A stretch of DNA of 64,000 bases, from NCBI GenBank assembly GCA_012797775.1, contig JAAZOM010000006.1, positions 12,815 to 76,814 on the forward strand. Direction: 5' to 3'. Source of the stretch: Candidatus Kuenenbacteria bacterium. Lineage in GTDB: Bacteria > Patescibacteriota > Patescibacteriia > UBA2196 > GWA2-42-15. The position numbers were made by a program, and so were the translations under genes. The notes under the pieces were generated by a model that ran no database searches, had not been told where the DNA came from, and saw nothing but the letters and a program-made list of their open reading frames with translations. This document shows, one piece after another, positions 10,620 through 32,284 of the stretch. Within the stretch, counting starts at the first letter, position 1; the number at the start of each line of letters is the position of its first letter.

Positions 10620-10623
10620 ATTT

Positions 10624-12084
10624 TTATGTTAAATTATTAAATTTATTTTCAAAGATTTTTTTTAGATCAGCTTCTGTATATGGGAGAGGCACGGCATTTT
10701 CTAAATTTCCATATTTACTCAAACCATAGGTATAAGCAAAAGCTAGATAGGGGATTAATAGATCTTTGTATTGAATGCGACCTATTTTGTTTAGTACTCT
10801 CTTGTCAAAACCGCCATTAAAAATAACATCAAAAGCGTAAAGTTCCTTCCAGCCACCATGGCCATCAGAACCGAGGGTTATCGAAGCCACATTCATACTA
10901 TTCAAGACGATTTTTTCTGAAAGTTGGTATTCGTCAGGAAAATCTTCTTTCAATAGTTCTCTGATGGCCCTGACCATGCGTGTAGTATATTCCAAAGAAA
11001 AACCAGTCAACGTCTTCATGCCCAAATAAACTATTACTAGGGCAAATTTTAAAAGCATACAGGGGATTAATTTTCTCTCTGTTAATAATTTAATAATTGC
11101 TTCTGGCATTATTGGTATTCTGTGTTCTGCGCCAACCAAATATTCCCCTTCGACCGTCAGGCGCACACGCTTGTTGTCATCATCCACCAACCAAAACAAT
11201 TGGCTACCGACTTCTTTTTCATCGTTCCAAGCGCCGGGTATACCTTCAAATTTTTTTAAAGCCCTTGTTCTAAAATTATTATCAAAAATCATTTGATAAA
11301 TAAAACTATTTTGTTGTTTCCTGATTAATGCTATTAAATAGTCAGTAAAAACCGTGTCCTCAATAACCACCAGATTGGCAATTTGTTTCCGGTCTTCTAG
11401 CGGGAATAATCTTTTCCATAAATAAAAATTTATTTTGGTCATTTCATCGCCCAAATATTGGCAACCGGACAAATCCAAACCTCTTAATTCCCCCGTTATT
11501 TCTTCCAAAAATTTTTGCTCCTCGGTATTAAATAAATGCCATTGATGTTTTTCTTTTAATCTGCCAGCTATATCAAAATCATATTTGGGCATGCCCCACA
11601 TCAGCTTGTGTTCATATTTTTTGGGGAATAAATTTATTTTTTTGTCATGGAAAATTATTCCTCTTTTATGAAAGGGATCGTTAAACGGTACTTTGGAAGT
11701 GGCAAAAGTCAAAATGTCACCGAACTCTTCTCGATTATATAGCTTATAAAAATTTGTTAAGGCGTGAATCGAGGTCAAAATCGGGTGGTTCAAAATCCCA
11801 TGGTGATCCATACTGCCGGCTATTAGACCCCCCTCATCAGTTAAGCGTAAGTCAATATTTTTTCTTTCCCCCGGATTAAAAATAGATTCTATTTTATTCC
11901 TAATTAATATTTTTAGTTCTTTTTGCCGCTCGATGTGTGGCGCAGGTGCATCGTAAGTATTGATCCTCCTAGAATATTCGCTCAAGGTTTCCTCACTACG
12001 AAAAAACTGTGCCAAGGTCGGCATCAGTTCCACTACCAGATTAGCCATGTTATTTAATCCTGGATCATCGTAAAATTTTTCCAT
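10624..12084 (-). CDS. Hypothetical protein, 486 aa.
   Basis: Long ORF with no recognisable motifs. Start trimmed to the internal Met (MEKFYDD...) at 12084 so that it does not run into the tRNA at 12090-12164. Confidence 0.5.
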   Translation of the reverse strand: MEKFYDDPGLNNMANLVVELMPTLAQFFRSEETLSEYSRRINTYDAPAPHIERQKELKILIRNKIESIFNPGERKNIDLRLTDEGGLIAGSMDHHGILNHPILTSIHALTNFYKLYNREEFGDILTFATSKVPFNDPFHKRGIIFHDKKINLFPKKYEHKLMWGMPKYDFDIAGRLKEKHQWHLFNTEEQKFLEEITGELRGLDLSGCQYLGDEMTKINFYLWKRLFPLEDRKQIANLVVIEDTVFTDYLIALIRKQQNSFIYQMIFDNNFRTRALKKFEGIPGAWNDEKEVGSQLFWLVDDDNKRVRLTVEGEYLVGAEHRIPIMPEAIIKLLTERKLIPCMLLKFALVIVYLGMKTLTGFSLEYTTRMVRAIRELLKEDFPDEYQLSEKIVLNSMNVASITLGSDGHGGWKELYAFDVIFNGGFDKRVLNKIGRIQYKDLLIPYLAFAYTYGLSKYGNLENAVPLPYTEADLKKIFENKFNNLT

Positions 12085-12089
12085 ATTTT

Positions 12090-12164
12090 TGGCGGCCCGT
12101 GAGGGAATCAAACCCCCGTCTCCCTAAAAACATTAGGGTGTCCTAAACACTAGACGAACAGGCC
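12090..12164 (-). tRNA. tRNA, probably Asn (anticodon GTT), with atypical U37 and U56.
   Basis: Manual cloverleaf: GGCCTGT/ACGGGCC acceptor stem, GTCT/GGAC D stem, CCCTA-ATGTTTT-TAGGG anticodon arm, GGGGG-TTTGATT-CCCTC T arm, discriminator G and encoded CCA. Total 75 nt. Confidence 0.6.
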
Positions 12165-12207
12165 ATATTGACTTATCTTATAATAATTTTTTACTACTTA
12201 CAAATTT

Positions 12208-13674
12208 TTATTTTATTTTCCTCACTATTCCCTTGTCCGCATCTACCTCTACCAGATCCCCGTCTCGTAAAATCTGCGTAGCAACTTTAGTGCCGATCAC
12301 ACACGGAACAGCCAACTCCCTAGCTACGATTGCCGCGTGGCAAGTTATTCCACCCATATCAGTCACAATTGCCGCCGCCTTTTTCATAGCGGGTACAACA
12401 CTGGGGTTTGTCATGTGTGAGACTAAAACATTTCCAGCGTGCATTTTAGCCATCTCTTGCATGGTATTAATAATTTTTACTCTTCCTTTTGCACTACCTC
12501 CATAAGCTGTTTGCCCCCGCAACTCTTCCTCGGATGCAATCTCTTCTTGGTATTTTTGAATTTTTATTTTTTTCATTATTTGTTTAGCTTCCTTGCCAAC
12601 CCAGCAAGCTGTTTTCCCCTTATGGGCTATGGTCAAGCTGTAATTCTGTCTCCCTGTTGTCATTTTGGCCAACTTGTTATTTTTAGACAGTGCTTGTTTA
12701 AAATCGCTAGGCAGTAAAAATCTGACTTGTTCTAAAGTGACTCCTGCCCGCTTAGCGACCTCTCTGAAAATATTTTCCATAGCATAATAACTAAAAAACT
12801 GGGCATCTTTGCTGTATAATCTGACGGACAGAGAATCCCTTACTATTTTAAAAATCTTTTCATGTGTTTTCCCAACATTGTATAAATGCTCAACCTCTCT
12901 TTGCTCCCTTAATAATTTTGCTGTTTCTCGTTCTAGTTTTTTCTCATAATCTTCATATTTTATTTTTTCTAAAGATTCTTCAAAATCTGCCAACATTAAT
13001 ATTTTACCTTGTAGCCCATATTCTAGCCACTCATATTTTTTGGCGTGCCGTTTCAGGAGCTTCTTTTGCACCCCATTATTTTTTACTTTGGCAATTTTGG
13101 ACAACTCTTTTTTTTCTTTTATCCAATTGCTTTCTCCTGTCGGAGTAGTCAAAATTCTCAACGCCTCCTGCGGTGGGTACTTTATTTTTCTTGTCTCTTG
13201 GTATATTTCATCCAAATAATCATGCAAGTAATTAGTAATAATATTCTCCGGCGTCTCCAAAATCCACATCGGTAGCCTCGGTACATGCACACTAGCCTGC
13301 CCAGATTGAAAAAGTTTTATCCATTTTATCAGTTCTCTGTTACTCAATTTTTCCGCTCTTATCTTTTTTATAATTTTGCTTAACTTTAGTAGCTTATCGG
13401 AGTTATCTCGGTTAATATCATGTAGCTTGTCCCACAATTTTGGATTATTAAATAAAAGCTGAAAACTACTTCGGTTTACTCGATCATACGATTCCTTCGA
13501 GCAAAAAAGATTACAGGCTGATTTGATATATTCAGCTCCGGCGTATTCTATAGGTTCAAACCCCCATTTTTTAGGTGTCAATGTTGCGCCTTCCCAATTA
13601 ATAGCCACAAATAAATAATTTGCGTAATCTTCTCGTTCAATTAGCTCAAATTTTTTATGGTAGGGTATTTTCAT
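12208..13674 (-). CDS. PEP-utilising-enzyme mobile (phosphohistidine) domain protein with an unknown approximately 380-aa N-terminal region. Paralog 2.
   Basis: The C-terminal ~100 aa (GGITCHAAIVARELAVPCVIGTKVAT...GDLVEVDADKGIVRKIK) is the swivel His domain of PEP synthase, PPDK and rifampin phosphotransferase. Confidence 0.7.
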   Translation of the reverse strand: MKIPYHKKFELIEREDYANYLFVAINWEGATLTPKKWGFEPIEYAGAEYIKSACNLFCSKESYDRVNRSSFQLLFNNPKLWDKLHDINRDNSDKLLKLSKIIKKIRAEKLSNRELIKWIKLFQSGQASVHVPRLPMWILETPENIITNYLHDYLDEIYQETRKIKYPPQEALRILTTPTGESNWIKEKKELSKIAKVKNNGVQKKLLKRHAKKYEWLEYGLQGKILMLADFEESLEKIKYEDYEKKLERETAKLLREQREVEHLYNVGKTHEKIFKIVRDSLSVRLYSKDAQFFSYYAMENIFREVAKRAGVTLEQVRFLLPSDFKQALSKNNKLAKMTTGRQNYSLTIAHKGKTACWVGKEAKQIMKKIKIQKYQEEIASEEELRGQTAYGGSAKGRVKIINTMQEMAKMHAGNVLVSHMTNPSVVPAMKKAAAIVTDMGGITCHAAIVARELAVPCVIGTKVATQILRDGDLVEVDADKGIVRKIK

Positions 13675-13759
13675 ATTTTTATTGTTTTATTTTTTACAAC
13701 GTCGTTATCGGCCTAAATCGCTAGATTCATTTCATCTTTGGTTATCTCTTGTCGCATTA

Positions 13760-13781
13760 TTCTGTACCCATCTGTACAGAA
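13760..13781. promoter_or_regulatory. Perfect 8-bp inverted repeat TTCTGTAC-N6-GTACAGAA, an operator-like site.
   Basis: Seen directly in the sequence about 90 nt upstream of the start of the 12208-13674 gene. Confidence 0.35.
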
Positions 13782-13836
13782 TAAAATAATGTCAAATTTT
13801 CTAGCACTGGGTGAAGACCAAATTCGTTTATTTTTT

Positions 13837-13879
13837 AGTCTAAATATTAGTCTAAAGTTTGGTCTAATCTATAGTCTAA
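13837..13879. repeat. Four direct repeats of RGTCTAA with an exact 12-bp phase.
   Basis: agtctaa, agtctaa, ggtctaa and agtctaa start at 13837, 13849, 13861 and 13873. They lie between two PEP-utiliser genes and overlap the stop of the upstream one. Confidence 0.6.
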
Positions 13880-14907
13880 TTTTTCATTTTTCTCACTATT
13901 CCTTTATTCGCATCCACTTCTACCAGATCGCCATCTTTTAGAGCTTTCGTCGCGATTTTTGTCCCCACAATGCAAGGAATTTTTAATTCTCTAGAAATTA
14001 TGGCCGCATGACAGGTTGCTCCCCCTTCATCAGTAATAATTGCTGCAGCTTTTTGAATAATTGGTATGAACATTTGATTTGTCATGGTGGCGACCAGAAT
14101 GTCATTTTTTTTAATTTTTGGAAAATCAGACTTATTTTTTATAATTTTAACCCGCCCATTTTTTATTCCCGGAAACGCTATAGCCCCCCTTAGGTTTTTA
14201 TTTAAATTAAATTTATTTTTTTCTTTTAGACCCAGAGAAACGGCCATTTTTTTAGCTTCATTCCCAATCACAAGTAAATTTTTATCCGCATAATATAAAT
14301 AAGCTGTCTGACGCGCGGCCGCCCTACTATAATCAATTAGTTTGTTAGAAATCAATAGTTGTATTTCCATTAAGCTCAGGCTGTTAATTATTTTTGTGTT
14401 TATATTTTTAAAACTGCGAGCAGTTTTAAAAATATAAACGCCAAGCTCTACCCATATACCCTGAATCTTATGCTTAATTATTTTTTGACGATACTCTGGA
14501 TTTTCCTCCAAGAATTTTTTATTTAAAGCGTATCCTATATAAGCACATATAATATAGTAAGCCCAGTATTTTATCATTATATGTTTTATTTTTTTATGAT
14601 CAAAACGTAGGGATTTCCCATCTATAATTTTTTGAATTTTTTTTTCGCAATCGTTTATTTTATTGAAATAAGTTAGATATTTTTTGGGATAAATTTTTAT
14701 CTCCCGCTCGATTTTTTTTATTATTCTTTTGTATTGAAAAACATTTCGGTATATTTCGCAGACATTGTTTTCGGCAAAATAATAAACACGACTAAAGGGT
14801 GATTTTAAAATTCTCCCAACCAATTTATAAGCCCCCAAATGAGTTTCCATCAAAAAGAAAGGCAGTTCCCTGGTAATTTTTTCATATTGATCTCGCTTTA
14901 TAGGCAT
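13876..14907 (-). CDS. PEP-utilising-enzyme mobile (phosphohistidine) domain protein. Paralog 1.
   Basis: The C-terminus (GGATCHAAIISRELKIPCIVGTKIAT...GDLVEVDANKGIVRKMK) is nearly identical to the C-terminus of 12208-13674. The N-terminal ~240 aa is of unknown function. Confidence 0.7.
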   Translation of the reverse strand: MPIKRDQYEKITRELPFFLMETHLGAYKLVGRILKSPFSRVYYFAENNVCEIYRNVFQYKRIIKKIEREIKIYPKKYLTYFNKINDCEKKIQKIIDGKSLRFDHKKIKHIMIKYWAYYIICAYIGYALNKKFLEENPEYRQKIIKHKIQGIWVELGVYIFKTARSFKNINTKIINSLSLMEIQLLISNKLIDYSRAAARQTAYLYYADKNLLVIGNEAKKMAVSLGLKEKNKFNLNKNLRGAIAFPGIKNGRVKIIKNKSDFPKIKKNDILVATMTNQMFIPIIQKAAAIITDEGGATCHAAIISRELKIPCIVGTKIATKALKDGDLVEVDANKGIVRKMKN

Positions 14908-14967
14908 ACATTATAAATTATTTTTTTGGCCATTTTTAGGATTATTATCGTCTGCCCGCCACATTTA

Positions 14968-15906
14968 CTACAAAGTAGTAATCGGTCGGCTCTGGGTAAT
15001 ATACAAGTTATTTTTCTCCATCGCCCACTCAATATCGCAGGGAAAGCCATAATGTTTTTCAATTTGCCCGCACAATTTGGCTAGCTCAATGATTTTTTTG
15101 CCTGGCAATTTTTGTTTCTCCTGGATATTTTTGGCCACCTTGGCGTGAATAGTTACCTCGCCTTTTTTGGTGATCATCATAACTTGGCTCGCAATATTAA
15201 TATCCATTATTGACCAATCGCGCTTGTCCAGCACGTAAGAATCTGGTGTTATCTGCCCAGACACGATCGCCTCACCGAGCCCAAAGCCTGCTTCCAAAAT
15301 CATCTGGTTTTTGTCTTTAGTCACCGGATGGACCGTAAAACAGATTCCCGACACCTCTGATTGCACCATCTTTTGTACGACCACTGCGACAGACACATGG
15401 GATTTGAGGAGTTTTTTCTCATGGCGATAAAAAATCGCCCTTGGGGTAAACAAAGACGACCAGCATTTTTTGACATTATTCAATAATTCTTTTTCTGTTG
15501 TATTGAGATAGGTTTCCAATTCCCCAGCCCAGGAAGCAGTCTTAGAATCTTCCGCTGTGGCCGAACTTCGAACTGCCACATAAGGCGCTTTGAGTTTTTT
15601 AAATTCACTCGTTATTTCTTTGCCCAGATCAGCTGGGAATTTTGTATCAGCAATCATATCTCGGATTTCATTGGACGCTCGATCCACCGAATTAGTGTCT
15701 TTATAATTTACCTTATCCAGCTCTGCCTGAATTTCTTGTTTCAAATCAGTTTCTTCCAAAAATCGATCAAAGGCCGTAGCCAAAACCACAAAGCCCGGCG
15801 GCACTGGAATTTTGGCGTTTAGCATTTCTCCAAGCGACGCGCCCTTGCCCCCAGCAATCCCTACATCTTTTTTAGTAATTTCTCGGAAATTTTTGGTGAA
15901 TTGCAT
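14968..15906 (-). CDS. Stand-alone PEP/pyruvate-binding (PPDK_N-type ATP-grasp) domain protein.
   Basis: VGIAGGKGASLGEM...IPVPPGFVVLATAF...VAVRSSATAEDSKTASWAGELETYLN matches the N-terminal nucleotide-binding domain of PEP synthase and rifampin phosphotransferase. Confidence 0.75.
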   Translation of the reverse strand: MQFTKNFREITKKDVGIAGGKGASLGEMLNAKIPVPPGFVVLATAFDRFLEETDLKQEIQAELDKVNYKDTNSVDRASNEIRDMIADTKFPADLGKEITSEFKKLKAPYVAVRSSATAEDSKTASWAGELETYLNTTEKELLNNVKKCWSSLFTPRAIFYRHEKKLLKSHVSVAVVVQKMVQSEVSGICFTVHPVTKDKNQMILEAGFGLGEAIVSGQITPDSYVLDKRDWSIMDINIASQVMMITKKGEVTIHAKVAKNIQEKQKLPGKKIIELAKLCGQIEKHYGFPCDIEWAMEKNNLYITQSRPITTL

Positions 15907-16090
15907 AGGATTTTACTTAATTTATTTATATTTTAATTCTACCAAATCTAGCCAAAAAAGCCACAAAAAGGTGAATTATGAAGAATGAATTAAGAATTAT
16001 GGTTAAAAACTGAGCAATTTATATCCCATGATTTAGTTTAAAAGCAAAACAATCTGAAGGCATAATTCATAATTCTAAATTCATAATTCA

Positions 16091-16125
16091 AAAAAGAGCG
16101 CAGTCGCCCACGCTCTTTTTTTCTG
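16091..16125. terminator. Bidirectional intrinsic terminator.
   Basis: aaaaaagagcg-cagtcgccca-cgctcttttttt hairpin, downstream of the 16166-17764 gene. Confidence 0.65.
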
Positions 16126-16165
16126 TATTGTTCCGCGCCTCTTTCGTTTCCGTGTTAGTTCCGTT

Positions 16166-17764
16166 TTAGTTGCAGCTGCCTGCCGGCGCGCTTGTCGCAC
16201 TCTGGCCTGTCAGCGTTTTCTCACAGCCAGCTACATCATTGTACTGGCAGAAATTTTTTCTGACTGTTTCGGCATCGATACCATTAAAAGTATAACGGTT
16301 ATTGACCATCCAGGTCGGACTGGCGCCGATATTCAATTCATTGGCCAGTTTTATATTTTCACTCAAGAGTTTTTTACCCTCATCGCCAGTAGCGCAGGCC
16401 TTGATCTTCCCGAAATTGGCCGCGCAGGTCGTCCAGTCGCCCTTGATATCTTTGTTGCGGCACCAGACATAATCCATAAAATTACTTGGGTAATATTTGG
16501 CCGCACATAACTCGCGGATATTTTCATCTACCTCACCCTGCCCATGGAGAGATTGGAAGGTGCCGTCAGCCTTTTCATTGGCAATATAGTAAAGATTGAA
16601 ATCAATATTCTGGCCAAAATTGTCCAGCACTTCTTTCATCGCATTCATCGCCTGGATACCATAGGGGCACTCGCTCATCACAAATAGATCCAATCTTTTT
16701 GTCTCTTCTGTCCGACAACCTAGAAACCCCGCGCAGTCGCTGTCATCGCAGTCCACTTGACCATTGCCCGTATCATCAGTCTTGTTATCGCAGATTTCTT
16801 TGGTCGGGTTGAAGCTCGCGCCAATAGCTAGATTGTACAGATCTTCTGTTTGCGTCAGATATCTTTCTACTTGGCTATATCCTTCGGCCTCTTTTACTTT
16901 CTCCTCAAAAAGCACGGCTGGCAAAAGAGCCAATTTGTATTTTTCATAAAACTTCTTGCCTTCTTCGGTGTTATAATCTTTTCTTTCAATTTTGATCTTT
17001 GGGAAAACGCCCGTGAGCTGGCTCTCTAGCCCGGCCGTGTCGCACTCTTCTTTCTGACAGCGGCTATCACCGAGGATATAGGCGGTAAATTCTTTGTCTT
17101 GGGGCAAATCACCGCAGACCTTTGATGGTCTGTTATTGGTCGCCGCACAGATGGCGCGACCAAGGGCCGTCTCTGTCCTCTGGCCAGTGTATTGTTTGCC
17201 GGCGATATAAAATGTTGGGCTGCCGGCCACATTGAGCGCCTGGGCTTTTTCTAGACTGGTAGTCAAAAGACTGGCCGACTCCTCGCCTTCGGCGCAGGTT
17301 TTTATACTTTCAAAATTGGCTCCGATTTCTTTGGCACAAGATTCAAAGCTGGATTTTAGATCCTGATAATTTTTGTTCTGGCAAGCCAGATAATCCCAAA
17401 ACTTATCCGGGTATTTTGTTTTGACACACAATTGGTAACGGTTGCCCTCGACCTCGTTTGGGCCGTGCAAGGATTGGAAGCTGCCGTCTGCTCCCTTGTC
17501 AGCGATGTATTCCACATTAAAATTAACCACCTCTTTGAAATCCGGGATGATTTTATAAACCAATTCCTCGGCTTGTGAGCCATAAGGACACTGGCTCATC
17601 ACATAGAGATCAAAATCGATCTTTTCACCACCCCCATTTTTACCCGCCTTGGTGGCGATATAGCCGCCGATGGCCACTACGATGATGAGAATGGCCAAAA
17701 ACAATATGCCGCGCCCACCGCTCTTTTTTGGCGTGAGAGGGGCGTCTTTTCGCATTTCTTCCAT
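16166..17764 (-). CDS. Signal-anchored protein with two tandem thioredoxin-fold (DsbA/GILT-like) domains carrying a CPYG motif.
   Basis: N-terminal TM helix. A roughly 200-aa module is present twice: DLYVMSQCPYG...FNVEYIA...GSFQSLHG and DLFVMSECPYG...FNLYYIA...GTFQSLHG. The protein is Cys-rich throughout. Confidence 0.55.
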   Translation of the reverse strand: MEEMRKDAPLTPKKSGGRGILFLAILIIVVAIGGYIATKAGKNGGGEKIDFDLYVMSQCPYGSQAEELVYKIIPDFKEVVNFNVEYIADKGADGSFQSLHGPNEVEGNRYQLCVKTKYPDKFWDYLACQNKNYQDLKSSFESCAKEIGANFESIKTCAEGEESASLLTTSLEKAQALNVAGSPTFYIAGKQYTGQRTETALGRAICAATNNRPSKVCGDLPQDKEFTAYILGDSRCQKEECDTAGLESQLTGVFPKIKIERKDYNTEEGKKFYEKYKLALLPAVLFEEKVKEAEGYSQVERYLTQTEDLYNLAIGASFNPTKEICDNKTDDTGNGQVDCDDSDCAGFLGCRTEETKRLDLFVMSECPYGIQAMNAMKEVLDNFGQNIDFNLYYIANEKADGTFQSLHGQGEVDENIRELCAAKYYPSNFMDYVWCRNKDIKGDWTTCAANFGKIKACATGDEGKKLLSENIKLANELNIGASPTWMVNNRYTFNGIDAETVRKNFCQYNDVAGCEKTLTGQSATSAPAGSCN

Positions 17765-17930
17765 AAAAAATAGTTAGTTTGTAAAGAGGACCCACTAGGG
17801 TATTTAGTAATTTACTTTAGCATATTTTAATAATAATTCAAAATTTGAGTAAAATAAAAAACCGGACCTATCTTTTTGGTAGACAGAGTCCGGTTGTTTG
17901 GTTCGGGGGTTTTCGCGATGGTTCTAGGCG

Positions 17931-18422
17931 CTAGCGGCGGGGCAAAATATGCCGCAGTACTTTCCCGACGATTTTTTCGTCGGGCAGTACTGGGTTGCCC
18001 CAGTCGCAGTCCCGGCCTAGCCGCTCGATAATGGCCCGGGTTGAGCCGTCGTTCAGGGGGATGAACTCGACGGCCCAGTCCATCTCGATCATCGACCGGC
18101 TGGACGGCCGGAAGCCCCGACCACTTTTGAGAGAGTCCTCGAACTGAGCCCGGAGTCTCAGGCTCCGCTGGTTTGTCGTGTCCGAGACGGACACAAAAAT
18201 ACGAACCAGTCCCTGCTGTCCTTCCCACAGATGGGGGATAGCCGGGCGGGGGGGCAATGTGGTGGGCAGGGTGGTGTCCGGGGCGGGGGTAAGCGGACCA
18301 ACCGTCGTGTTGATGACGGTGGTGTCGGAGTTGTTGCGGGGGGTGTAGAACAGGTAGGCGCGGAGCAAAAAGAATACTCCGGCCAAAACCAATAACGCCC
18401 CGATGATATACATCTTTTTCAT
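17931..18422 (-). CDS. Hypothetical signal-peptide protein (163 aa) sitting inside the GC-rich island.
   Basis: AGGAG ribosome-binding site 8 nt before the ATG. N-terminal signal/TM segment MKKMYIIGALLVLAGVFFLL. A consensus promoter lies upstream at 18478-18506. Coding sequence is about 60 percent GC. Confidence 0.5.
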   Translation of the reverse strand: MKKMYIIGALLVLAGVFFLLRAYLFYTPRNNSDTTVINTTVGPLTPAPDTTLPTTLPPRPAIPHLWEGQQGLVRIFVSVSDTTNQRSLRLRAQFEDSLKSGRGFRPSSRSMIEMDWAVEFIPLNDGSTRAIIERLGRDCDWGNPVLPDEKIVGKVLRHILPRR

Positions 18423-18477
18423 GACACATTTCTCCTTTTTGGTGATTGCAAATAAAATGAACTATTTTTATGTTAAA

Positions 18478-18506
18478 ATTATAGCATATTTATCTATTTT
18501 TGTCAA
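18478..18506 (-). promoter_or_regulatory. Consensus sigma70 promoter TTGACA-17-TGCTATAAT on the minus strand.
   Basis: The reverse complement reads TTGACAAAAATAGATAAATATGCTATAAT. It drives the 17931-18422 gene. The same extended -10 (ATATGCTATAAT) recurs at 33117-33145. Confidence 0.65.
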
Positions 18507-18622
18507 ATGGTTAAGTAATAAGCGAGGTAAGTAGTCATTAAGGTAAAAAACAAACGCTGATTTTATCGGTTTTCTATTATTTGCCTTATTTATCTCGCTT
18601 ATCGCTTATAGCGACCACTCTC

Positions 18623-18651
18623 TTGACAAGGGCCTGTCTTTGCTCTAAGAT
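18623..18651 (+). promoter_or_regulatory. Sigma70-like promoter TTGACA-17-TAAGAT.
   Basis: The -35 is at 18623-18628 and the -10 at 18646-18651, with a 17-nt spacer. It sits immediately upstream of the long structured non-coding region. Confidence 0.45.
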
Positions 18652-18657
18652 AATTTT

Positions 18658-19495
18658 ACAAACAAAATTGAAAATAATCTGGGTGGTGGTTCGTGGCACG
18701 GCTTTTGCTGCGTTGACATTCCACGTTGCGATTACCATCGCCCAGATTTGTTCTTTTAAAACGGGAGCTAGTTAGCTGGTTGATTACGACTGGCGGAGAC
18801 CCGCAGGGCGCATTATTGCCTTGTTGGCGGTCCCGTGGCTAGTACGGACATCGGCAGCTAGCTCCCTAAAATATAAAATGGGAGAGAGGGCTGGCGATAG
18901 CTGAAATTTGTCATTCGTTGGGCCGAGTCCTTTTGGCGACTTGGGCGAATGATCAGAGGACGGCCGTTGCCCTCCTCCCTTTATTTTACGACTGCGGACC
19001 AGTGTGCCAAAGAAATGGCTCACAGCTCGTGTGTTTCCCGAGCTTCGCGAGTGGCGTGTCTATTTTGCCGCCAGTTCCGCGGCCATCGGTACATTACCCC
19101 CAGCCTTCCAAGCGAGCGCACCACAGCATGGTGTTGGCAACCACTCTCCTCCCAAATACCTATGGCGAGGATGGAAGGACAGTTAGTCCCCATGGACTAG
19201 GTTCCGCAGTCGTTCATTTTTCGGCGGCATCTTGGCTTTCGACAAGACTGGTAACCCCCCTAACTCCAGCAGCTCACTGCCAGGGTGTCCGCCACTATTT
19301 TCGCTGCCTGATCAGCTCTTTGGGAATTGGTTCCCGAATGATCTTAGTCTCGGCTCTCAAAAGCGAGACGCAAAATAGGTCCAACCGTAAAGGTTGTGAG
19401 CTGGTAGCGAAATGCGGGTCACTCTTGCGCGCGTCAAAGCCGCAAATCGTGATCCCGCCGGGCCCTGATGACTTTGTCACCAGGGCCCCTTTTTT
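18658..19495 (+). ncRNA. Candidate large structured RNA (about 840 nt, about 58 percent GC) of unknown class.
   Basis: No credible ORF in any frame. Bounded by the promoter at 18623-18651 and the terminator at 19460-19495. Long-range stems include G-U wobbles: cugggUgGuggu (18679-18690) pairs with accaucgcccag (18735-18746), and gggagcuag..gcug (18764-18779) pairs with cagcuagcuccc (18855-18866). Confidence 0.45.
19460..19495 (+). terminator. Intrinsic terminator.
   Basis: gggccctg-atgactttgtcac-cagggccc hairpin followed by TTTTTT. Confidence 0.7.
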
Positions 19496-19496
19496 A

Positions 19497-19525
19497 TTGC
19501 CAAAAATATTTTTTTGATATATAAT
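19497..19525 (+). promoter_or_regulatory. Sigma70 promoter TTGCCA-17-TATAAT.
   Basis: The -35 is at 19497-19502 and the -10 TATAAT at 19520-19525, separated by exactly 17 nt. Confidence 0.55.
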
Positions 19526-19531
19526 ATTTTT

Positions 19532-19750
19532 ACCAAATAAAAAAACGGTCCGGCATTTCTCACTAGGTTATCCCCCTAGAGGCTGGTAGAGATTTTCACC
19601 ACTCCTTATTCTCTAGCAGTTTGAGATTTGCCGGGCCGCCAAATATCGGTCAGCAAATTGGCGCCTTTCTCTGGTGTCAGTAATGCTTGGCCAGCGGCAA
19701 ACGGAAAAATGGCCCCCTTCCCGGCCATAAAACCGTTTGCCGTTTTTTTA
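19532..19750 (+). ncRNA. Candidate structured small RNA of unknown class, about 220 nt.
   Basis: Runs from the promoter to the ggcaaacgg...ccgtttgcc hairpin plus T7 terminator at 19696-19750. Contains several internal hairpins (ctagag/ctctag, gccaa/ttggc, tggcc/ggcca). No ORF. Confidence 0.4.
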
Positions 19751-19756
19751 TTTCCC

Positions 19757-19886
19757 GTCATTGTGAGCGACCTAGCCTCTCAGGAGGGGAGCTTGGCAAT
19801 CTCGGGATTGCCCGCCTAGACTCGGCGAGGCTGGCTTCGTCGTGCTACTCCCTGCCTCGCCGGCAGGCGGGCTCGCAATGACAGAA
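19757..19886 (+). ncRNA. Candidate structured RNA domain of about 130 nt, closed by a 13-bp long-range stem.
   Basis: gucauugugagcg (19757-19769) pairs with cgcucgcaaugac (19874-19886). Nested stems ggcaauc/gauugcc and cggcgagg/ccucgccg lie inside. GC-rich with no ORF. Confidence 0.35.
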
Positions 19887-20330
19887 ATTTTTTGAAAAAA
19901 GTATTCATTTGACAATTTTTTGGGGTCTGTTAATATTAAATTATAAAGCTCCTTAAAAAAGTAAAAAAGCGGTCCGGCGGACCAGTCGCATTGTTCCATT
20001 GCAGTCGAAGATCGGGCATTCATGGCCTATATGTGTTCCACAATGGCGAAAAAAGAAGGGCAGCTTCATCGCCCATGCTTCTCATCCAAACCCTAATTCA
20101 CCATTCACCAAATTCCACTGCGAACCTTTTAACCGTTTCATCTCCATTCATGGTCCCGCCGGACCCGTTTTCTATAAAGGCAATCTTTGTTTATTTTAGT
20201 ACACCAAGTACTGAAAAAATGAAGGTTGCCGTTTTTTTATTTGCCAAAAAATTTAAAAGTGCTAAGGTAAAAGCACAAACCAAGGCAAAACTAAAATTTT
20301 GAAATACCCCAATTTGGGAGGGAGAGAAAG

Positions 20331-21272
20331 ATGGAACACGTAAAGATATTGGCCGTCAATCGCCGGTGGGATCTGCCAGTATTGATCACCAGACAACTGG
20401 GCTTGCCCCTTGTCTGGGTAGAGAAAAAAATTTTTGCCGACGGTGAGTGCTGGGTCAGACTCCCGGAAAGCGTACGCGGCAAAAGGGTATTTATCATTGC
20501 AGAAAATACACCGGCTGAGAAACTCATGGTTTTGTTGGTGATGATTGATGCTTGTCGCCGGGCTTCAGCCGCTGAAATCAATGTGGTTGTTCCCTATTTT
20601 GGCTGGGCGCGCCAAGATCGCATGAAGGGTCGTGATCCGGTCACTGTAAAATTGGTCTGCAATCTCATTGTCCAGGCCGGTGCTGATCGCCTGCTTTCGA
20701 TGCACCTACACTTCCCCCAGCTTACCAGCTTCGTGGACATTCCTTGGGATCATCTGTATTCGGCCTATGCTATCATCGACTGGGCGAGAAAGCAAGGTAA
20801 AAAATTTACTGTAGCTGGTCCTGATTATGGCGCTTCGCCCTTGGCAGACTTCGTCGCCAGAAAACTGGATATGCCCTTGGCAATTTTGAGAAAAAAACGG
20901 CCGGCGCACAATCAGGCAAAAACTAGTGGTATTATGGGCAGTGTTAAAAACTCGGACGTTTTGATGGTCGATGATATTTCAGACACTGTTCGGACCATGA
21001 TTGGTGGCTGTGAATATTTGGGAGAGCTGGGAGCCAGAAATATTTATCTCACCGCCACCCATGGTTTGTTATCAGCTGGCGGGGCCAAAAGGATAGAAGA
21101 GTGCTCTCGTGTTAAAAAAGTATTGATTACCAATACGACGCCCATGACGGCCAGAAAAAAATCACCAAAAATTGAGCGTATATCAGTACATGACATTTTT
21201 GCCAAGGCCATCAATGCTATCATCAGGGAGGAATCGGTCAAAGATCTTTTTGAAAAAGAACTTTTCGCCTAA
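20331..21272 (+). CDS. prs: Ribose-phosphate pyrophosphokinase (PRPP synthetase). Copy 1, GC-rich.
   Basis: FADGECWVRLPESVRGKRVFIIAENTPAEKLMVLLVMIDACRRASAAEINVVVPYFGWARQDR matches the Prs N-terminal and PRPP-binding blocks. A strong ribosome-binding site GGGAGGGAG precedes the ATG. Confidence 0.8.
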   Translation: MEHVKILAVNRRWDLPVLITRQLGLPLVWVEKKIFADGECWVRLPESVRGKRVFIIAENTPAEKLMVLLVMIDACRRASAAEINVVVPYFGWARQDRMKGRDPVTVKLVCNLIVQAGADRLLSMHLHFPQLTSFVDIPWDHLYSAYAIIDWARKQGKKFTVAGPDYGASPLADFVARKLDMPLAILRKKRPAHNQAKTSGIMGSVKNSDVLMVDDISDTVRTMIGGCEYLGELGARNIYLTATHGLLSAGGAKRIEECSRVKKVLITNTTPMTARKKSPKIERISVHDIFAKAINAIIREESVKDLFEKELFA

Positions 21273-21317
21273 ACAAAACCCCTGCCGGATTTCCGACAGG
21301 GGTTTCTTTTTTTATTT

Positions 21318-21381
21318 CTACTTTTCTACCACCCTACTTTCCTACCGACCTACATCCCTACTGTCCTACCTCCCTATCTTC
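21318..21381. repeat. Array of eight CTAC(N4) units with an exact 8-bp phase.
   Basis: CTAC (CTAT in the last unit) starts at 21318, 21326, 21334, 21342, 21350, 21358, 21366 and 21374. The array sits in the convergent gap between prs and the AMP phosphorylase gene and overlaps the latter's stop. Confidence 0.7.
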
Positions 21382-22865
21382 ACCACCTGATTTTTTCTAG
21401 CCGCGACCAGCCCTAGCTTCAGCCGGCCTTCATTTTCCGCATACAGAGTGAAAAGTTTTTGCCCTTTTGCTACCTTGTCATTAATTCTCACATGCATATG
21501 GATGCCCGCCAGTTTTTCTCTTGGCGCACCCAAATTTACGCAGATTTCTTCTATCGCCTTATTATTTACCGCCACTACCTTACCATCGCGCTTGGCATGC
21601 ATCTCATAATTTAGAGCCCCGAGCGCTACTGCATCAGCTTTGATTTTTTGATTGCCTCCCTGTGCTTTGATGATCTCCTGCATTTTTTTCCAAGCCGCCA
21701 GACTTTTTAGTTGTTGCTCGGCAATTTTTCTACCTTGGCCTTTTTTGCAAAATCCTTTCAACTCCAAAAGTTTGCCTGACAGATAAACACCTTTTTTCTC
21801 GAGATCGATCGGCCGGAGTTTGTGCTGTTGCAAGACCCGGAGCACATCTCTCGCTTCGAGTGCCGGACCCACACCCGCCCCCACCGGCTCTTTGGCCTCG
21901 AGCATTTCTACTTCTACTTTTATTTTAAATCTCTTCCCCACCGCCACAAATTTCTTGGCTATTTCTTTGGCGGTTTTCAGGCTGTGCACCTTGGCTGTTG
22001 GCCCATAGGGCAGGTCAATTACGAGGTAATCTACTCCCATCGCCACTTTTTTGGCGAGAATAGAAATAATCATTTTATCATATGGCTCCAAGGACAATGG
22101 CTTGGACACTTTGATAATAATGTCATCAGCTGGTGCCATACTGACCGCTCCGCCCCAGACCATACAGGCTTTGGTTTTCTCAATGACTTTTTTTATTTTT
22201 TCTACGCTCAGATCGACCGGCGCCAAGACTTCCATCGTATCCGCTGTGCCCGATGGCGAGGTGATCGCCCGTGAAGAAGTTTTTGGGATATAGAGCCCAA
22301 GCGAGGCGATAATCGGGATGACTATCATTGTGGTCCGATTGCCCGGTATGCCCCCAATAGAGTGTTTGTCCACCACCCTCTCTTTTAAATTCAATTTTTC
22401 TCCGCATTCAGCCATGGCCTTGGTCACATAGTAAAGCTCATCCAGGCTATATGGTTTTACAAAACTGGAAGCTACATAGTAGGTAGTTTCGATTTGTCCT
22501 AGTTTGCCCGTAGAAATATCCGAGATGATGGAATATATTTCTTCATAATTTAGTCTCTTGCCCAACATTTTTTTATTGATCGCCTTGATTGACTCTGGCC
22601 GGGAGTAGAGCATTATTTCCACGATATCTTCACTGTCAATTTGGTTTTTCTTCCAAATCTCCTCAAATAATCCCACTTCCCCATAATCAACCTTGCTGTC
22701 AGAAACATCCACGGTGGCAATCATGGTTTTGTTTTTGCTCCATTTTAGGTTTACCCGGTCGCCCGGCCGGATACCCTGATTTTCCGCTTCTTTTTCTTGG
22801 AGCACTACCGTTGGCTCACCACCGGATGAAAAGTCTATTTTTTTGCATTTGTAGAATAGGCGCAT
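21366..22865 (-). CDS. AMP phosphorylase (thymidine phosphorylase family with the AMPpase-type N-terminal extension).
   Basis: DKHSIGGIPGNRTTMIVIPI...TSSRAITSPSGTADTMEVLA are core thymidine-phosphorylase-family blocks. The N-terminus MRLFYKCKKIDFSSGGEPTVVLQEKEAE matches archaeal-type AMP phosphorylase. Start set at the internal Met at 22865. Confidence 0.75.
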   Translation of the reverse strand: MRLFYKCKKIDFSSGGEPTVVLQEKEAENQGIRPGDRVNLKWSKNKTMIATVDVSDSKVDYGEVGLFEEIWKKNQIDSEDIVEIMLYSRPESIKAINKKMLGKRLNYEEIYSIISDISTGKLGQIETTYYVASSFVKPYSLDELYYVTKAMAECGEKLNLKERVVDKHSIGGIPGNRTTMIVIPIIASLGLYIPKTSSRAITSPSGTADTMEVLAPVDLSVEKIKKVIEKTKACMVWGGAVSMAPADDIIIKVSKPLSLEPYDKMIISILAKKVAMGVDYLVIDLPYGPTAKVHSLKTAKEIAKKFVAVGKRFKIKVEVEMLEAKEPVGAGVGPALEARDVLRVLQQHKLRPIDLEKKGVYLSGKLLELKGFCKKGQGRKIAEQQLKSLAAWKKMQEIIKAQGGNQKIKADAVALGALNYEMHAKRDGKVVAVNNKAIEEICVNLGAPREKLAGIHMHVRINDKVAKGQKLFTLYAENEGRLKLGLVAARKNQVVKIGR

Positions 22866-23009
22866 AAAATTAGTATCAAGATATAAAGTATTTATTGTGT
22901 GTAATTTTATTTCTGTCTTTATTTTACCGCACCCCGTCTGAAAAATCAAAAAAGCTAAAAGGTTATATCTATAAGATTTTTTAATTGTAGCATGGCCCCT
23001 TGACGCGCC

Positions 23010-23038
23010 GGATAAAATATTTTATTCTTATTTCAAAG
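23010..23038 (+). promoter_or_regulatory. Possible sigma70 promoter TTGACG-17-TATTCT.
   Basis: 17-nt spacing. Lies about 100 nt upstream of the 23139 gene, which has the ribosome-binding site AAGGAGAAGG. Confidence 0.3.
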
Positions 23039-23138
23039 TTTTTTAAAAAGAAGAGACTAAACATAAAAAGGAGCAGGAAAATTTGTTGTTTTCAATTCAC
23101 GAGAAATTAAACCAGCCAAATGACAAGGAGAAGGTCTC

Positions 23139-23711
23139 ATGCAGACAACTTTAAATCTCCCGCTAATTCCCAGTGAAGTTTTTTTCACCAGGGGTTGGGG
23201 CAATGGCAGAAGCAAAGACATTTCACGGCGGCTGGCTCTTCGCGCTGCAGGCATCGGGGATTATAACATCGTGAATGTAGATGATGCTATTTTGCCCCCT
23301 AAATGTAAAGTTATCAGCCGATTTGCTGGCTTGTCAAAGTTAAGGCGCGGCGAATTTATTTTTTGTGTCTTATCTTGTTCTTCTGACAGCGAGCCCAACC
23401 GCCTAGTCTCGAGCGCTGTTGGTTGGGCCTGGACACCAGACACCGAGCAAGACGGCTTTGTCTCCAGGTGTGCTTTGAATGGCCAAACCGGCATAAAAAC
23501 CGGCGACGAGGCAGAAGACCTTGCCGCCACTATGCTGGCCAGTAATTTGGGGATAGAATTTGACCCCGAAAAAGCCTGGAGAGAAAGGGAGGAAACTTAT
23601 CAAGCGGCTGGTCAGGATATTCGCACCTCGCGCCTTTTCCAATCTCGGAGGTGCGGGCCAGATAAAAATATTTGGACTACCGTAGTGACAGCTGCGGTTT
23701 TCCTCATGTAA
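23139..23711 (+). CDS. Pyruvoyl-dependent arginine decarboxylase (PdaD) family protein.
   Basis: FFTRGWGNG...LALRAAGIGDYNIVNVDDAILPP parallels the archaeal PdaD N-terminal region (F.T.G.G...AL..AGIGN.N...SIMPP). The gene is GC-rich. Confidence 0.5.
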   Translation: MQTTLNLPLIPSEVFFTRGWGNGRSKDISRRLALRAAGIGDYNIVNVDDAILPPKCKVISRFAGLSKLRRGEFIFCVLSCSSDSEPNRLVSSAVGWAWTPDTEQDGFVSRCALNGQTGIKTGDEAEDLAATMLASNLGIEFDPEKAWREREETYQAAGQDIRTSRLFQSRRCGPDKNIWTTVVTAAVFLM

Positions 23712-23730
23712 TAAGTAATTATCCCAAACG

Positions 23731-23760
23731 AAAAACTCCACCCCTAGGGGCGGAGTTTTA
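23731..23760. terminator. Bidirectional terminator between convergent genes.
   Basis: aaaaactccacccc-ta-ggggcggagtttta. Confidence 0.6.
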
Positions 23761-23761
23761 T

Positions 23762-24691
23762 TTATATATTTTTTACAAACAGCTCGGCCACCGTCAGCAC
23801 TTCAAATTTTTTATCCTTCTTAAAATCCTTGGTCGAGACAATGGAATTTGTGGTAAATATTTTTTTAATATTTTTCTCGCGCCGCAGATTGGCTACCACT
23901 GGTCCAGTGGCTACCAAGTGTGTCAAAACTACATAAATATCTTTTGCTCCTTTGGCCTTCAGGGTTTTGGCCGCCTGGATCAGCGTCCCTCCGGTCTGGC
24001 TCAAGTCATCCACCATCACCACTGTTTTATTTTTCACCTCTCCTCGAAATTTGGTCACCTTCGCCTCATCCACTCGCGGCCGGATTTTTTCTATGGCGGC
24101 CAGATTTTTTATCCCTAATTCATCCGCAAAATTTTTACTGCGCTCGTCAGCGCCCAGATCCGGCGCTAAAACCACCACATCTTTCAGTTTTAATTTTTTG
24201 ATCTTTTCTATAAAAAGTCCCCGCGCTTTTAATTCGGTTATTTTCACTCGGAAATATTTGGCCACTTGGCGGCTGTGCAGATCTAGGGCCACGATTTCAT
24301 CTACTCCTGCATCTTCAATAATTTTTGCCATGAGCTTTGCACTCATCGCATCCCCAGAATATTTTATCCTGTCCTGCTTGCCATAACCAAAGTAGGGGAT
24401 AAGAGCCACTATTTTTTTCGCCCCGTTTTCCTTTAGCGTGTTGATGAGAATTATCAATTCCAACATATTTTCCGCTGGTGAAAAAGTCGAGCCCAAGACA
24501 TAAACTTTTTTGCCGCGGACATTTTCGTTTATATGTACCAAAATTTCCCCGTCTTTATAGTGGGATATCAGGCACCTGCCTTTTTTGATTTTTTTTGTCC
24601 GCCGGTTGGCGGATTGTAATATCTCTCCAACCAATTCTTCATTGCTATGGGTGGAGAAAAGAAAGTTAGACATTCTATTTGAGTTTAGCAC
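23762..24691 (-). CDS. prs: Ribose-phosphate pyrophosphokinase (PRPP synthetase). Copy 2, AT-rich.
   Basis: KDGEILVHINENVRGKKVYVLGSTFSPAENMLELIILINTLKENGAKKIVALIPYFGYGKQDR and VVLAPDLGA blocks. Confidence 0.8.
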   Translation of the reverse strand: MLNSNRMSNFLFSTHSNEELVGEILQSANRRTKKIKKGRCLISHYKDGEILVHINENVRGKKVYVLGSTFSPAENMLELIILINTLKENGAKKIVALIPYFGYGKQDRIKYSGDAMSAKLMAKIIEDAGVDEIVALDLHSRQVAKYFRVKITELKARGLFIEKIKKLKLKDVVVLAPDLGADERSKNFADELGIKNLAAIEKIRPRVDEAKVTKFRGEVKNKTVVMVDDLSQTGGTLIQAAKTLKAKGAKDIYVVLTHLVATGPVVANLRREKNIKKIFTTNSIVSTKDFKKDKKFEVLTVAELFVKNI

Positions 24692-26432
24692 TCCCTGGGA
24701 TCAGCGGATCATAGCCATGCTCTACTTCATCGCCATCTTTATAGCCATCACCATCAGTATCAGCTTTTGATGGATCAGTCTCCCAAATAAATATTTCTTC
24801 TTCATCAGTGATACCATCATTGTCTGTATCTAGATCGGTGCCCATTTCCAAGCCCATTCCATAGTCTTCCCCATTGTTCATCGAGCTTATGCCGTTGGGC
24901 GTGGCCACATTTTCTCCGGCCTTCAGATTGCCGCTGTCACCCAGCAACTGGAAGACCAAAGTATAATCATTTGGTTTTATGCTGGTATACAAATAGCCAC
25001 CATCTATTATTTTGTCTCCGCCCGGTACTTCACTCATATAGACTGTTGAGCCGGCACACTCTTCTATACTAGCCCTAAATCCCTTGGAACACAAAACTTT
25101 CATATTGCCGACACCCGTAGCCGCCGGTATCTCGTTTTTTGGATAGCCATTATTATCGACGAAATAAAGCTCTAGCGCCGTTTGTATCTGCTTTATTTCG
25201 CTCACCGTTTTGGCGTCACTATTTTTTGTCTGCGCTTTGTCCAACGCCCCAAACATACCTCCGCCAAAAGCCTCACTTAATAATTTTTCTAATTCCACTG
25301 GGTCTTTTGGTGACTCTATCTCCATTATCTGGTTAAAATTATCAAATGTTATGGTCATCGCCCCTCCCAAAGTCTGGTTGCCGTCTTTGTCTTTGCCGAT
25401 ATTATCAAAAGGGATTTCTATTTTTCTTATAAAATATTCTTTTTTATCTATCCAGATATCTAGGCTGAAATTTTTAACAAAGCGGTCAAAATTCTGCCAG
25501 TCTTCTTCTTTCATCTCGGCCATGTTTTTTTCTATCTCGGCTTTATTTTTAGAAACAGTTTTTATCTTTTCTATCATATCCAAAATACCCTGTTTATCCA
25601 GACCCAACTGATAGTGGTATGTTTTATTTTCTCCCAATGTTTCCACGCCGTAGTCATTTTTTAATATTATTATCTTGTCCGCATCTTGCTCTAGGATTTC
25701 CCCAATTTTCTTTGTATCCTCATCCTCTTGGCCGGCAAATTTATCCAAGACCGTCGTATTAATACTATATTTCACCCATTTATCTTTTATACTGCTAGTG
25801 TCAATAAACATAGCCAGCATAATTGGCAGTTGGTTTATTTTGAAATAAAGATTTTTCCCCAGAGTTACTACCTCGCCGGCTATATTATTAGTTGTACCGC
25901 CAATATCCAAACCAATATCTATTTTAAATTTTGAACGCAGATTATTTTCGTCGGTATTATCAGTGTATCCTTCTATTTCTGCGTACATCTTTTGTTTTTC
26001 CGTTCCAAGCAGCCCCCCAATTAAATTTAGCGTTGGGGTCGAAGTGGCTTGCTCCGCAGCTTGTTTTTCCTGAAATTCCAATTTCAAATCAAGCTTAAAA
26101 CTGGAAGCCTTTATTTGATTGGTGGCTTGGACGGATTTTTTTAGTACCTTGTCGGGTGTATTGGCGATATATTTGCTATAGCCCCAATATCCACCAAGTG
26201 CTACTCCAGCAAAAATTAAAACTCCAGCTACAATAGCCAGTATTTTTTTTATACCACCACTTGTTTGTGGCATCTCTGGATTCAAAAATTGAGAAGCATC
26301 CACGCTGGGTGGGTTATTCGGTACTGCGACGTTAGGGGTTGTCTCGTAAAGTGGGGTATGACAACTTTGGCAAACGTGGCTTTCCGGGCTATTTTCCAGC
26401 CCGCATTTTTGACAGCGCATATTGTTTTGCAT
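24675..26432 (-). CDS. Hypothetical membrane-anchored protein with an N-terminal zinc ribbon and a C-terminal Asp-rich calcium-binding-like repeat.
   Basis: CQKCGLEN...CQSCHT zinc ribbon, then a TM helix and a large extracytoplasmic region. C-terminal DTDNDGITDEEE...DTDGDGYKDGDE repeats resemble TSP3 or calcium-binding motifs. Confidence 0.5.
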   Translation of the reverse strand: MQNNMRCQKCGLENSPESHVCQSCHTPLYETTPNVAVPNNPPSVDASQFLNPEMPQTSGGIKKILAIVAGVLIFAGVALGGYWGYSKYIANTPDKVLKKSVQATNQIKASSFKLDLKLEFQEKQAAEQATSTPTLNLIGGLLGTEKQKMYAEIEGYTDNTDENNLRSKFKIDIGLDIGGTTNNIAGEVVTLGKNLYFKINQLPIMLAMFIDTSSIKDKWVKYSINTTVLDKFAGQEDEDTKKIGEILEQDADKIIILKNDYGVETLGENKTYHYQLGLDKQGILDMIEKIKTVSKNKAEIEKNMAEMKEEDWQNFDRFVKNFSLDIWIDKKEYFIRKIEIPFDNIGKDKDGNQTLGGAMTITFDNFNQIMEIESPKDPVELEKLLSEAFGGGMFGALDKAQTKNSDAKTVSEIKQIQTALELYFVDNNGYPKNEIPAATGVGNMKVLCSKGFRASIEECAGSTVYMSEVPGGDKIIDGGYLYTSIKPNDYTLVFQLLGDSGNLKAGENVATPNGISSMNNGEDYGMGLEMGTDLDTDNDGITDEEEIFIWETDPSKADTDGDGYKDGDEVEHGYDPLIPGSAKLK

Positions 26433-26440
26433 AATTTATT

Positions 26441-27709: not shown

Positions 27710-27715
27710 AGGGTT

Positions 27716-28173: not shown

Positions 28174-28193
28174 AGTATTTAATAATTAATTTC

Positions 28194-31902: not shown

Positions 31903-31905
31903 AAA

Positions 31906-32271: not shown

Positions 32272-32284
32272 GGAGGTGTGTGGT

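Follow-up and report, generated by a model that had tools for sequence, protein, structure and literature searches.

The 64-kb stretch of DNA analysed here (the window) lies within the 91-kb metagenome contig k127_291546 (run ERR1876141) of a Candidatus Kuenenbacteria organism, a Parcubacteria lineage of the candidate phyla radiation (CPR). Between the leftward-reading gene ORF163 (ORF, open reading frame) and prs (20331-21272, + strand), which encodes ribose-phosphate pyrophosphokinase, ~1.9 kb are free of genes (18430-20330). This island stands out because CPR genomes are small and dense. A first-pass annotation of the window had proposed that 17880-20330 harbours candidate large structured RNAs. 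The reading favoured here, to which we give an about even chance, is that a recombination-prone intergenic region carries a cluster of + strand non-coding units restricted to one Kuenenbacteria lineage group. Within this cluster, three long hairpins (H1-H3) and a compact second unit (unit B) would be kept as RNA structures and a palindrome (hairpin C) would be an inserted repeat. Coordinates of all features are collected in Table 1.

No Pfam match and no Shine-Dalgarno (SD)-led ORF could be identified in 18430-20330, where no ORF has a ribosome-binding site. As annotated initially, ORF163 with its textbook promoter is the single plausible protein gene and the rest holds no credible ORF. The GC content, put initially at ~55-60% against ~38% for the genome, had been overstated: it is 49.4% for 17880-20330 and 46.5% for 18430-20330 compared with 41.9% for the window, and only individual domains or sub-blocks of the island attain 53-66%. 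Scanning the whole window with the Rfam 15 covariance models at gathering thresholds yielded two tRNAs only. A permissive scan (E<=10) of 17700-20400 and of the corresponding island of a relative (see below) returned only hairpin look-alikes far below threshold, MIR1507 (24 bits, 73 needed) and Xist_exon1 (20 bits, 50 needed). Families covered by this null result include GOLLD, ROOL, OLE, HEARO, raiA, riboswitches and group I/II introns. RNase P, tmRNA, SRP and 6S RNA were rejected as candidates, there being no covariance model match, no tmRNA found by ARAGORN and no conserved motifs by eye. The island thus matches no known RNA class at either threshold and lacks RNase P, tmRNA and SRP, both as claimed initially.

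Table 1. Features of the island and its left border (ΔG, folding free energy in kcal/mol; G-U, number of G-U pairs; paired values are + versus − strand; z, folding z-score)
Feature	Position	Strand	Details
ORF163	17931-18422	−	small membrane-anchored protein; real gene, outside the RNA island
ORF163 promoter	18506-18478	−	TTGACA-17-TATAAT with TG, 12/12
AT-rich inverted repeat I4	18512-18608		22 nt, 82% complementary; between the divergent promoters; left edge coincides with the IS30-type breakpoint of one sample
Unit A promoter	18623-18651	+	TTGACA-17-TAAGAT, 10/12; identical in relative
Unit A	about 18658-19495	+	promoter 18623-18651, terminator 19460-19495
Hairpin H1	18676-18748	+	ΔG -33.8 vs -23.7; G-U 6 vs 1
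Hairpin H2	18763-18866	+	ΔG -54.4 vs -39.3; G-U 7 vs 1
Hairpin H3	18880-18979	+	ΔG -51.8 vs -41.7; G-U 7 vs 0
Multi-branched domain D4	18988-19213	+	z -4.2; ΔG -94.0 vs -100.6
Three local domains	19223-19293, 19299-19412, 19414-19458	+	z -4.8; borders from centroid fold
Unit A terminator	19460-19495	+	29-nt GC-rich hairpin (19460-19488), then T-run CTTTTTTATT
Unit B promoter	19497-19525	+	TTGCCA-17-TATAAT, 11/12
Unit B	19532-19753	+	~220 nt; hairpins 19546-19638 and 19648-19692; terminator 19693-19744, then T-run
Hairpin C	19757-19882		126-nt near-perfect palindrome; strand-neutral; conserved termini, variable interior
Unit D promoter	19909-19936	+	TTGACA-16-TAATAT with TG, 10/12
Unit D	about 19943-20238	+	leader-like; closing stem 19968-19984 with 20152-20170; terminator 20178-20238

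Transcription signals and strand-specific folding

Three promoter matches (10-11 of 12 positions) are found on the + strand of the island, each with a terminator downstream on the same strand, and they equal those of real genes in this DNA in quality. The sigma70 promoters and terminators of units A and B had been recognized in the first-pass annotation and were recovered here, while the third promoter (19909-19936) was absent from it. None of the three promoter/terminator brackets encloses an SD-led ORF, as would be expected of independent transcription units of the small RNA (sRNA) type, and three separately transcribed + strand units, A, B and D, are predicted.

Folding of the island is well beyond chance. 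Compared with shuffled sequence, z-scores of -8.2 (+ strand) and -5.6 (− strand) were obtained for 18655-19500, -4.2 for 18988-19226, -4.8 for 19227-19458, -10.7 for unit B (19532-19755) and -4.0 for unit D (19943-20245), the background of 426 windows of 150 nt having a mean of -0.6 and a standard deviation of 1.5. H1, H2, H3 and unit B fold better as the + strand by 10-18 kcal/mol (unit B: ΔG -101.1 versus -82.9) and together contain 28 G-U pairs on the + strand versus 4 on the − strand, of which unit B contributes 8 and 2. Neutral decay of a DNA palindrome would yield equal numbers of G-U pairs on both strands, so this imbalance indicates strand-specific selection. Hairpin loops of units A and B contain only 7 G in 131 nt. 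In H1-H3 and unit B, these features support selection for folding of the + strand.

The centroid fold of unit A is predicted to consist of eight consecutive local domains separated by AU-rich linkers, with no long-range helix. Stems with wobble pairs quoted in the first-pass annotation are real and rich in G-U pairs; they are not long-range, being the closing helices of the local hairpins H1 and H2. Unit A would thus resemble beads on a string, with eight local hairpin domains in one transcript, and this modelled fold speaks against reading the island as a single large ornate RNA. U-rich tracts after H3 and after D4 could stop transcription early.

Comparison with a second lineage

Protein searches led to one other lineage (the relative), represented by independent assemblies from ERR7569999-ERR7570002 and ERR14064713, which carries the island between the same flanking genes. 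In the collections searched, the island is known from these two lineages, as two sequence variants, only. Blocks of the island identical in both (18514-18795, 18971-19403, 19485-19985 and 20179-20235) alternate with replaced ones, namely the H2 apex (18796-18832), H3 (18872-18970), 19404-19484 including the unit A terminator, and 19986-20178; the N-terminus and promoter region of ORF163 are replaced as well. Both lineages are mosaic throughout (10243-29607 compared with L020 and L023), blocks of 99.98-100% identity lying beside blocks of 72-83%, and such blocks occur inside the housekeeping genes for AMP phosphorylase and RuBisCO. The mosaic was therefore rejected as a special feature of the island; as read from these alignments, it implies frequent homologous exchange between diverged Kuenenbacteria lineages. 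Since the lineages are mosaic everywhere, identical island blocks are uninformative on constraint, and it is the diverged blocks, at about 25-40% divergence, that provide a genuine comparison.

In the relative's H3, which is ~40% diverged, all 27 consensus pairs are kept, with five double and six single changes and none broken, while sliding the partner strand by 1-3 columns as a control gave zero double changes. The + strand is favoured again (ΔG -52.5 versus -40.3), close to the value of the window copy (-51.8). The H2 apex has been rewritten with pairing retained (one double and three single changes). Further, the unit A terminator has been swapped for one of other sequence at the same place. 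Being non-coding, bracketed by signals, strongly folded, enriched in G-U pairs on one strand and subject to compensatory change, the island appears to hold RNA-level structure in part, in H1-H3 and unit B, and the first three long hairpins of unit A would be maintained as RNA hairpins by selection. They may be processed into stable hairpins or provide a scaffold for protein binding. The earlier argument that wobble pairs mean RNA-level structure is thus supported for H1-H3 and unit B, through strand-specific G-U pairs and, in H3 and H2, compensatory change; it does not extend to the strand-neutral 18988-19458.

Outside these two lineages, searches for the island were negative. Prs relatives at 58% identity lack it and a scan of genome collections anchored on prs found only remote prs genes (Paenibacillus, 35% identity). 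A scan of JGI metagenome contigs with a D4 20-mer and a metagenome scan with an ORF163 protein profile were both empty, as were IMG/VR scans that used either a D4 19-mer or a stem pattern taken from units B and D, and blastn against phage and plasmid records gave no match to the island. Translated island ORFs compared with protein collections of ~15 billion sequences, spurious ORF calls included, matched only the same relative, the sole protein homologue being its copy of the same spurious island ORF.

Units B and D, hairpin C and the flanking genes

Unit B would be a compact, very stable three-hairpin RNA with mutually paired ends, its 5' A-run pairing with its own 3' U-run (14/14 inverted repeat, 19535-19548 with 19740-19753). 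Its four hairpin loops, UUAUCCC, CACCACUCCUUAU (also given as UUUUCACCACUCCUUAU), UUUCUCU and CCCUUCCC, are composed of pyrimidines only or nearly so and contain no G in 39 nt. By analogy with the C-rich-loop sRNAs of Firmicutes, unit B may act in trans, its C/U-rich loops binding purine-rich leaders or ribosome-binding regions. The sequence CUUUCUCU in unit B complements AGAGAAAG directly before the prs start codon, with a chance expectation of ~0.05. When duplexes of the unit B loops with 50 translation-start regions were predicted, purine-rich leaders, including that of prs, ranked high, with no clear outlier, and no extended target of loop 2 was found in the window. GGAG, GAGG or AGGA motifs were observed upstream of just 8 of 50 long ORFs of the window, most starts having plain AT-rich sequence before them; the two genes flanking the island, ORF163 and prs, belong to the few with strong purine-rich leaders. 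This rarity of SD-like motifs fits the reported lack of the anti-SD motif in about half of Parcubacteria (PMC9297842), and because of that lack classical SD occlusion is uncertain in this organism.

Judging by its sequence, hairpin C is a copy of a palindromic repeat family. Its termini CCGTCATTGCGAGCG...CGCTCGCAATGACG (CCGTCATTGYGAGCG ... GCTCGCAATGAC) recur in two unrelated IMG/VR contigs (L031 and L032) with different interiors. Of the features of a repeat resembling a miniature inverted-repeat transposable element (MITE), it thus has terminal inverted repeats and recurrence; no direct repeat that would represent a target-site duplication flanks 19757-19882, and the element is present in both lineages, that is, with no presence/absence polymorphism. 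One copy of a widespread palindromic repeat would accordingly be located between units B and D. The single match of an 18-mer from hairpin C in IMG/VR lies inside a coding region and was dismissed as chance, and no paper was found in a full-text literature search with the terminus sequence. At 34529-34550, a stretch of 22 nt that matches the right arm of hairpin C exactly is fused to a partial tRNA-Lys 3' end (34520-34550). The tRNA-Lys gene itself (34687-34762, − strand) has partial copies of its two ends nearby, at 34520-34550 and 34866-34886. From their sequences, these look like scars of integration events beside the tRNA.

Mobile DNA also adjoins the left border of the island. In sample ERR14064713, the island is joined at 18514 to the start of a transposase gene with an HTH_38 domain (IS30 type, E 3e-13; L024 1-197) in place of the window sequence to the left. 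Because the transposase abuts there, the Logan contigs assembled for the relative from three ERR757000x runs are interrupted at this position. Second copies of H1-H3, D4, unit B or unit D were not found in 71.5 kb (the window plus 7.5 kb of the same contig).

The simplest reading of unit D is a leader with a terminator that restricts read-through into prs, and the unit would attenuate or insulate prs transcription. Its body is loosely folded and its strong terminator ends ~90 nt before prs. A prs riboswitch or sensor-type attenuator was rejected, there being no conserved sensor domain between promoter and terminator: the body is not conserved between the lineages, that of the relative being not alignable and showing no + strand bias. 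Units B and D have closing stems in common and differ in their interiors.

ORF163, which has a strong ribosome-binding site and distant homologues, is identical in its C-terminal domain in the relative, where the N-terminal anchor is swapped. Its structural model, of moderate confidence (pLDDT 69), shows merely weak similarity to small envelope lipoproteins. Structure matches gave no RNA link, and the gene has no tie to the RNAs except for the divergent promoters in a common 115-nt spacer. The ORF163 promoter core TTTGACAAAAATAGATAA (18490-18508) is identical over 19 nt in L035 (50-68), where the ORF163 homologue is 39% identical, which suggests a possible conserved regulatory site in the promoter spacer. 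A TAAG-rich motif, TAAGCGAGGTAAG, and its variants are located near promoters and gene ends (18512-18533, 18587-18608, 31905-31945 and L034 1040-1090), the copies at 18512-18608 being the inverted repeat between the divergent promoters.

The wider neighbourhood encodes core metabolism: phosphoenolpyruvate-utilising enzymes, a DsbA/GILT-like protein, AMP phosphorylase, RuBisCO form III and R15P isomerase. Two prs paralogues (20331-21272 and 23762-24691) flank the AMP phosphorylase gene, beside RuBisCO form III and an IF-2B-type isomerase, and this AMP salvage gene set is interrupted here by the RNA island. Further apparent gene gaps with raised GC, at 32050-32750 and 39300-40100, are not RNA islands and carry small Cys-rich ORFs of <120 aa, with CxxC pairs and, on the − strand, signal-peptide-like N-termini. 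ARAGORN predicted a tRNA-Asn at 12090-12164 (− strand) that is not listed at Rfam gathering thresholds and overlaps the start of ORF 10624-12111.

Competing explanations and relation to known systems

Several observations weigh against a cluster of selected non-coding units. The + strand transcripts are predicted from sequence signals alone. Covariation comes from one sequence pair, from which the consensus structure was also derived, and D4 (100% identical) and unit B (identical) offer no comparative information. Strand bias is absent from D4, 19227-19495, hairpin C and unit D. About half of unit A, namely D4 together with 19227-19458, is strand-neutral and gives no comparative signal. Of unit D, the relative keeps the promoter, 5' stem and terminator but has other sequence in the body (19986-20178). 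At their 5' ends, units B and D both carry a generic A-run, AAATAAAAAAAC, which is the common left half of the bidirectional terminators of this genome. Targeting by C-rich loops is weakened by the scarcity of SD-like motifs (8 of 50 genes) and the lack of the anti-SD motif in about half of Parcubacteria (PMC9297842). Finally, a distant relative (L034), with an ORF163 homologue of 39% identity and the same DsbA-like neighbour, has a different hairpin string at the equivalent place, consisting of three non-homologous, strand-neutral hairpins with z about -8 on both strands.

Several of these points would suit the main rival explanation, which we regard as possible though less probable: a passive pile-up in which terminator hairpins, AT linkers that look like promoters and palindromic insertions rich in GC (MITE-like or resembling repetitive extragenic palindromes) gathered at a permissive, recombination-prone site, where transcripts would be incidental or serve only termination or insulation. 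Hairpin C, from a palindromic family present in several genomes and with a fragment adjoining tRNA-Lys, would fit this well, as would the IS30-type transposase at the island border in one sample, the unrelated hairpin string of L034 at the same locus and the lack of an island at Prs relatives of 58% identity. Units B and D resemble each other at their ends and not in their interiors, and each domain is flanked by A-rich 5' and U-rich 3' sequence like the ordinary bidirectional terminators here. However, the imbalance in G-U pairs, the G-poor loops and the compensatory changes in H3 require strand-specific selection, each of H1-H3, D4, unit B and unit D occurs only once in the 71.5 kb, and the promoter matches are on par with those of real genes.

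In a bolder form of the favoured reading, which seems doubtful at present, H1-H3 with the central unit A domains and/or unit B would be founding members of Kuenenbacteria/Parcubacteria-specific RNA classes with a dedicated cellular role, for example in regulating the few purine-leader genes (prs and ORF163) of a largely SD-independent organism.

The proposal of the first-pass annotation, by which unit A would form one large structured RNA representing a new class, is unlikely. One promoter and one strong terminator do enclose 840 nt that fold at z -8.2 and match no known family. The eight local domains lacking a long-range closing helix, the strand-neutral central half and the U-rich tracts, which could end transcription sooner, argue against it. 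Moreover, the 3' 80 nt of unit A are exchanged for 125 unrelated nt in the relative, and no homologue was found in protein collections, JGI metagenome contigs, IMG/VR or phage and plasmid records. A likeness of the ~840-nt unit to the large ornate RNAs GOLLD, ROOL and OLE had also been drawn. Unit A is similar to these in size range, GC enrichment and in that its function is not known; it differs in having no Rfam match, no long-range or multi-junction architecture, two representatives rather than hundreds and no phage or tRNA link. The likeness is thus not upheld, and is weakened further by the replacement of the unit A 3' cassette and the unit D body between lineages and by one block being a common palindromic repeat.

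The small remainder of probability falls to two further accounts and to anything unconsidered. It is very improbable that the hairpins act as single-stranded DNA (a recombination or transposition substrate or a single-strand origin) with G-T pairs tolerated on one strand: strand-specific G-T pairing would be compatible with folded single-stranded DNA too and mobile DNA is close by, but the Pfam content of the neighbourhood includes no integrase, Y1 transposase or Rep gene, inspection revealed no attC-type core sites, and promoters and terminators suit transcription. Tandem repeats, too, are absent from the island, where Tandem Repeats Finder (TRF) found three trivial 2-copy repeats of 7-8 nt only. 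Least probable of all is a degraded or small coding region (ORF 18918-19517, + strand; 51-aa ORF 19606-19761, − strand) or a high-GC assembly chimera. In favour of coding, several frames hold long ORFs, two of which were picked up by a gene caller in the relative (as P0123 and the identical 51-aa ORF), and the sole difference within the 51-aa ORF is synonymous. Against this account, open frames are expected at 54% GC, no Pfam match or ribosome-binding site was found, homologues occur at the same locus only, frameshifting indels separate the lineages, and the same junctions with island and flanks were independently assembled from at least five other runs, which rules out a chimera.

Guide-type and cassette systems were considered and rejected. 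A CRISPR or TIGR guide array does not fit the trivial TRF repeats and metabolic neighbour genes. Neither a TnpB, IscB or IS110 guide RNA nor a retron RNA is indicated, the Pfam listings from ~18 kb left to ~6 kb right of the island containing no such nuclease, recombinase or reverse transcriptase gene, in agreement with the first-pass annotation. For an integron attC array, RYYYAAC/GTTRRRY cores at the hairpin borders (by inspection), an integrase and cassette ORFs are all lacking.

Parts of the island resemble several better-known systems. Correia, ERIC and RPE elements are palindromic intergenic repeats or MITE-like elements. Hairpin C shares with them conserved terminal inverted repeats, a variable interior, an intergenic position and recurrence in unrelated genomes, whereas it differs from MITE-like elements in showing neither a visible target-site duplication nor presence/absence polymorphism between the two lineages. 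H1-H3 and unit B are unlike palindromic repeats in having no extra copies. In Staphylococcus aureus RNAIII and RsaE/RoxS-type sRNAs, C-rich loops bind purine-rich ribosome-binding regions. The island likewise consists of strings of independent hairpins and the unpaired pyrimidine- or C-rich loops of unit B could pair with such regions; it differs in having no covariance model match, in the rarity of SD motifs and in that its targets are predicted only. Unit D resembles attenuating leaders in its promoter, ~300-nt structured leader and strong terminator with prs 90 nt further on, whereas the lack of conservation of its body between lineages makes a ligand-binding aptamer unlikely.

The island as a whole is comparable to published GC-rich intergenic region (GC-IGR) candidates (PMC11109978), which are likewise long, predicted to be structured and enriched in GC relative to an AT-rich genome. 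It differs from them in its explicit promoter/terminator brackets and strand-specific G-U pairs, and the survey contained no CPR genomes. In that nomenclature, having fewer than five unique representatives places a motif among the low-ranking candidates, a class to which 607 intergenic candidates from 50 bacterial genomes were assigned (PMC11109978). The island is thus an orphan example of a familiar kind and, in published terms, a low-ranking non-coding RNA candidate. With two representatives, no functional link and 607 peers, its practical value lies in well-delimited coordinates and not in discovery. The finding is real and reasonably delimited, and of modest importance until expression or wider conservation is established. 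A full-text literature search found no description of regulatory RNAs in CPR/Patescibacteria. Expression is cheaply testable with metatranscriptomes of anaerobic digesters and, if expressed, units A and B would belong to the first trans-acting RNA candidates of the CPR.

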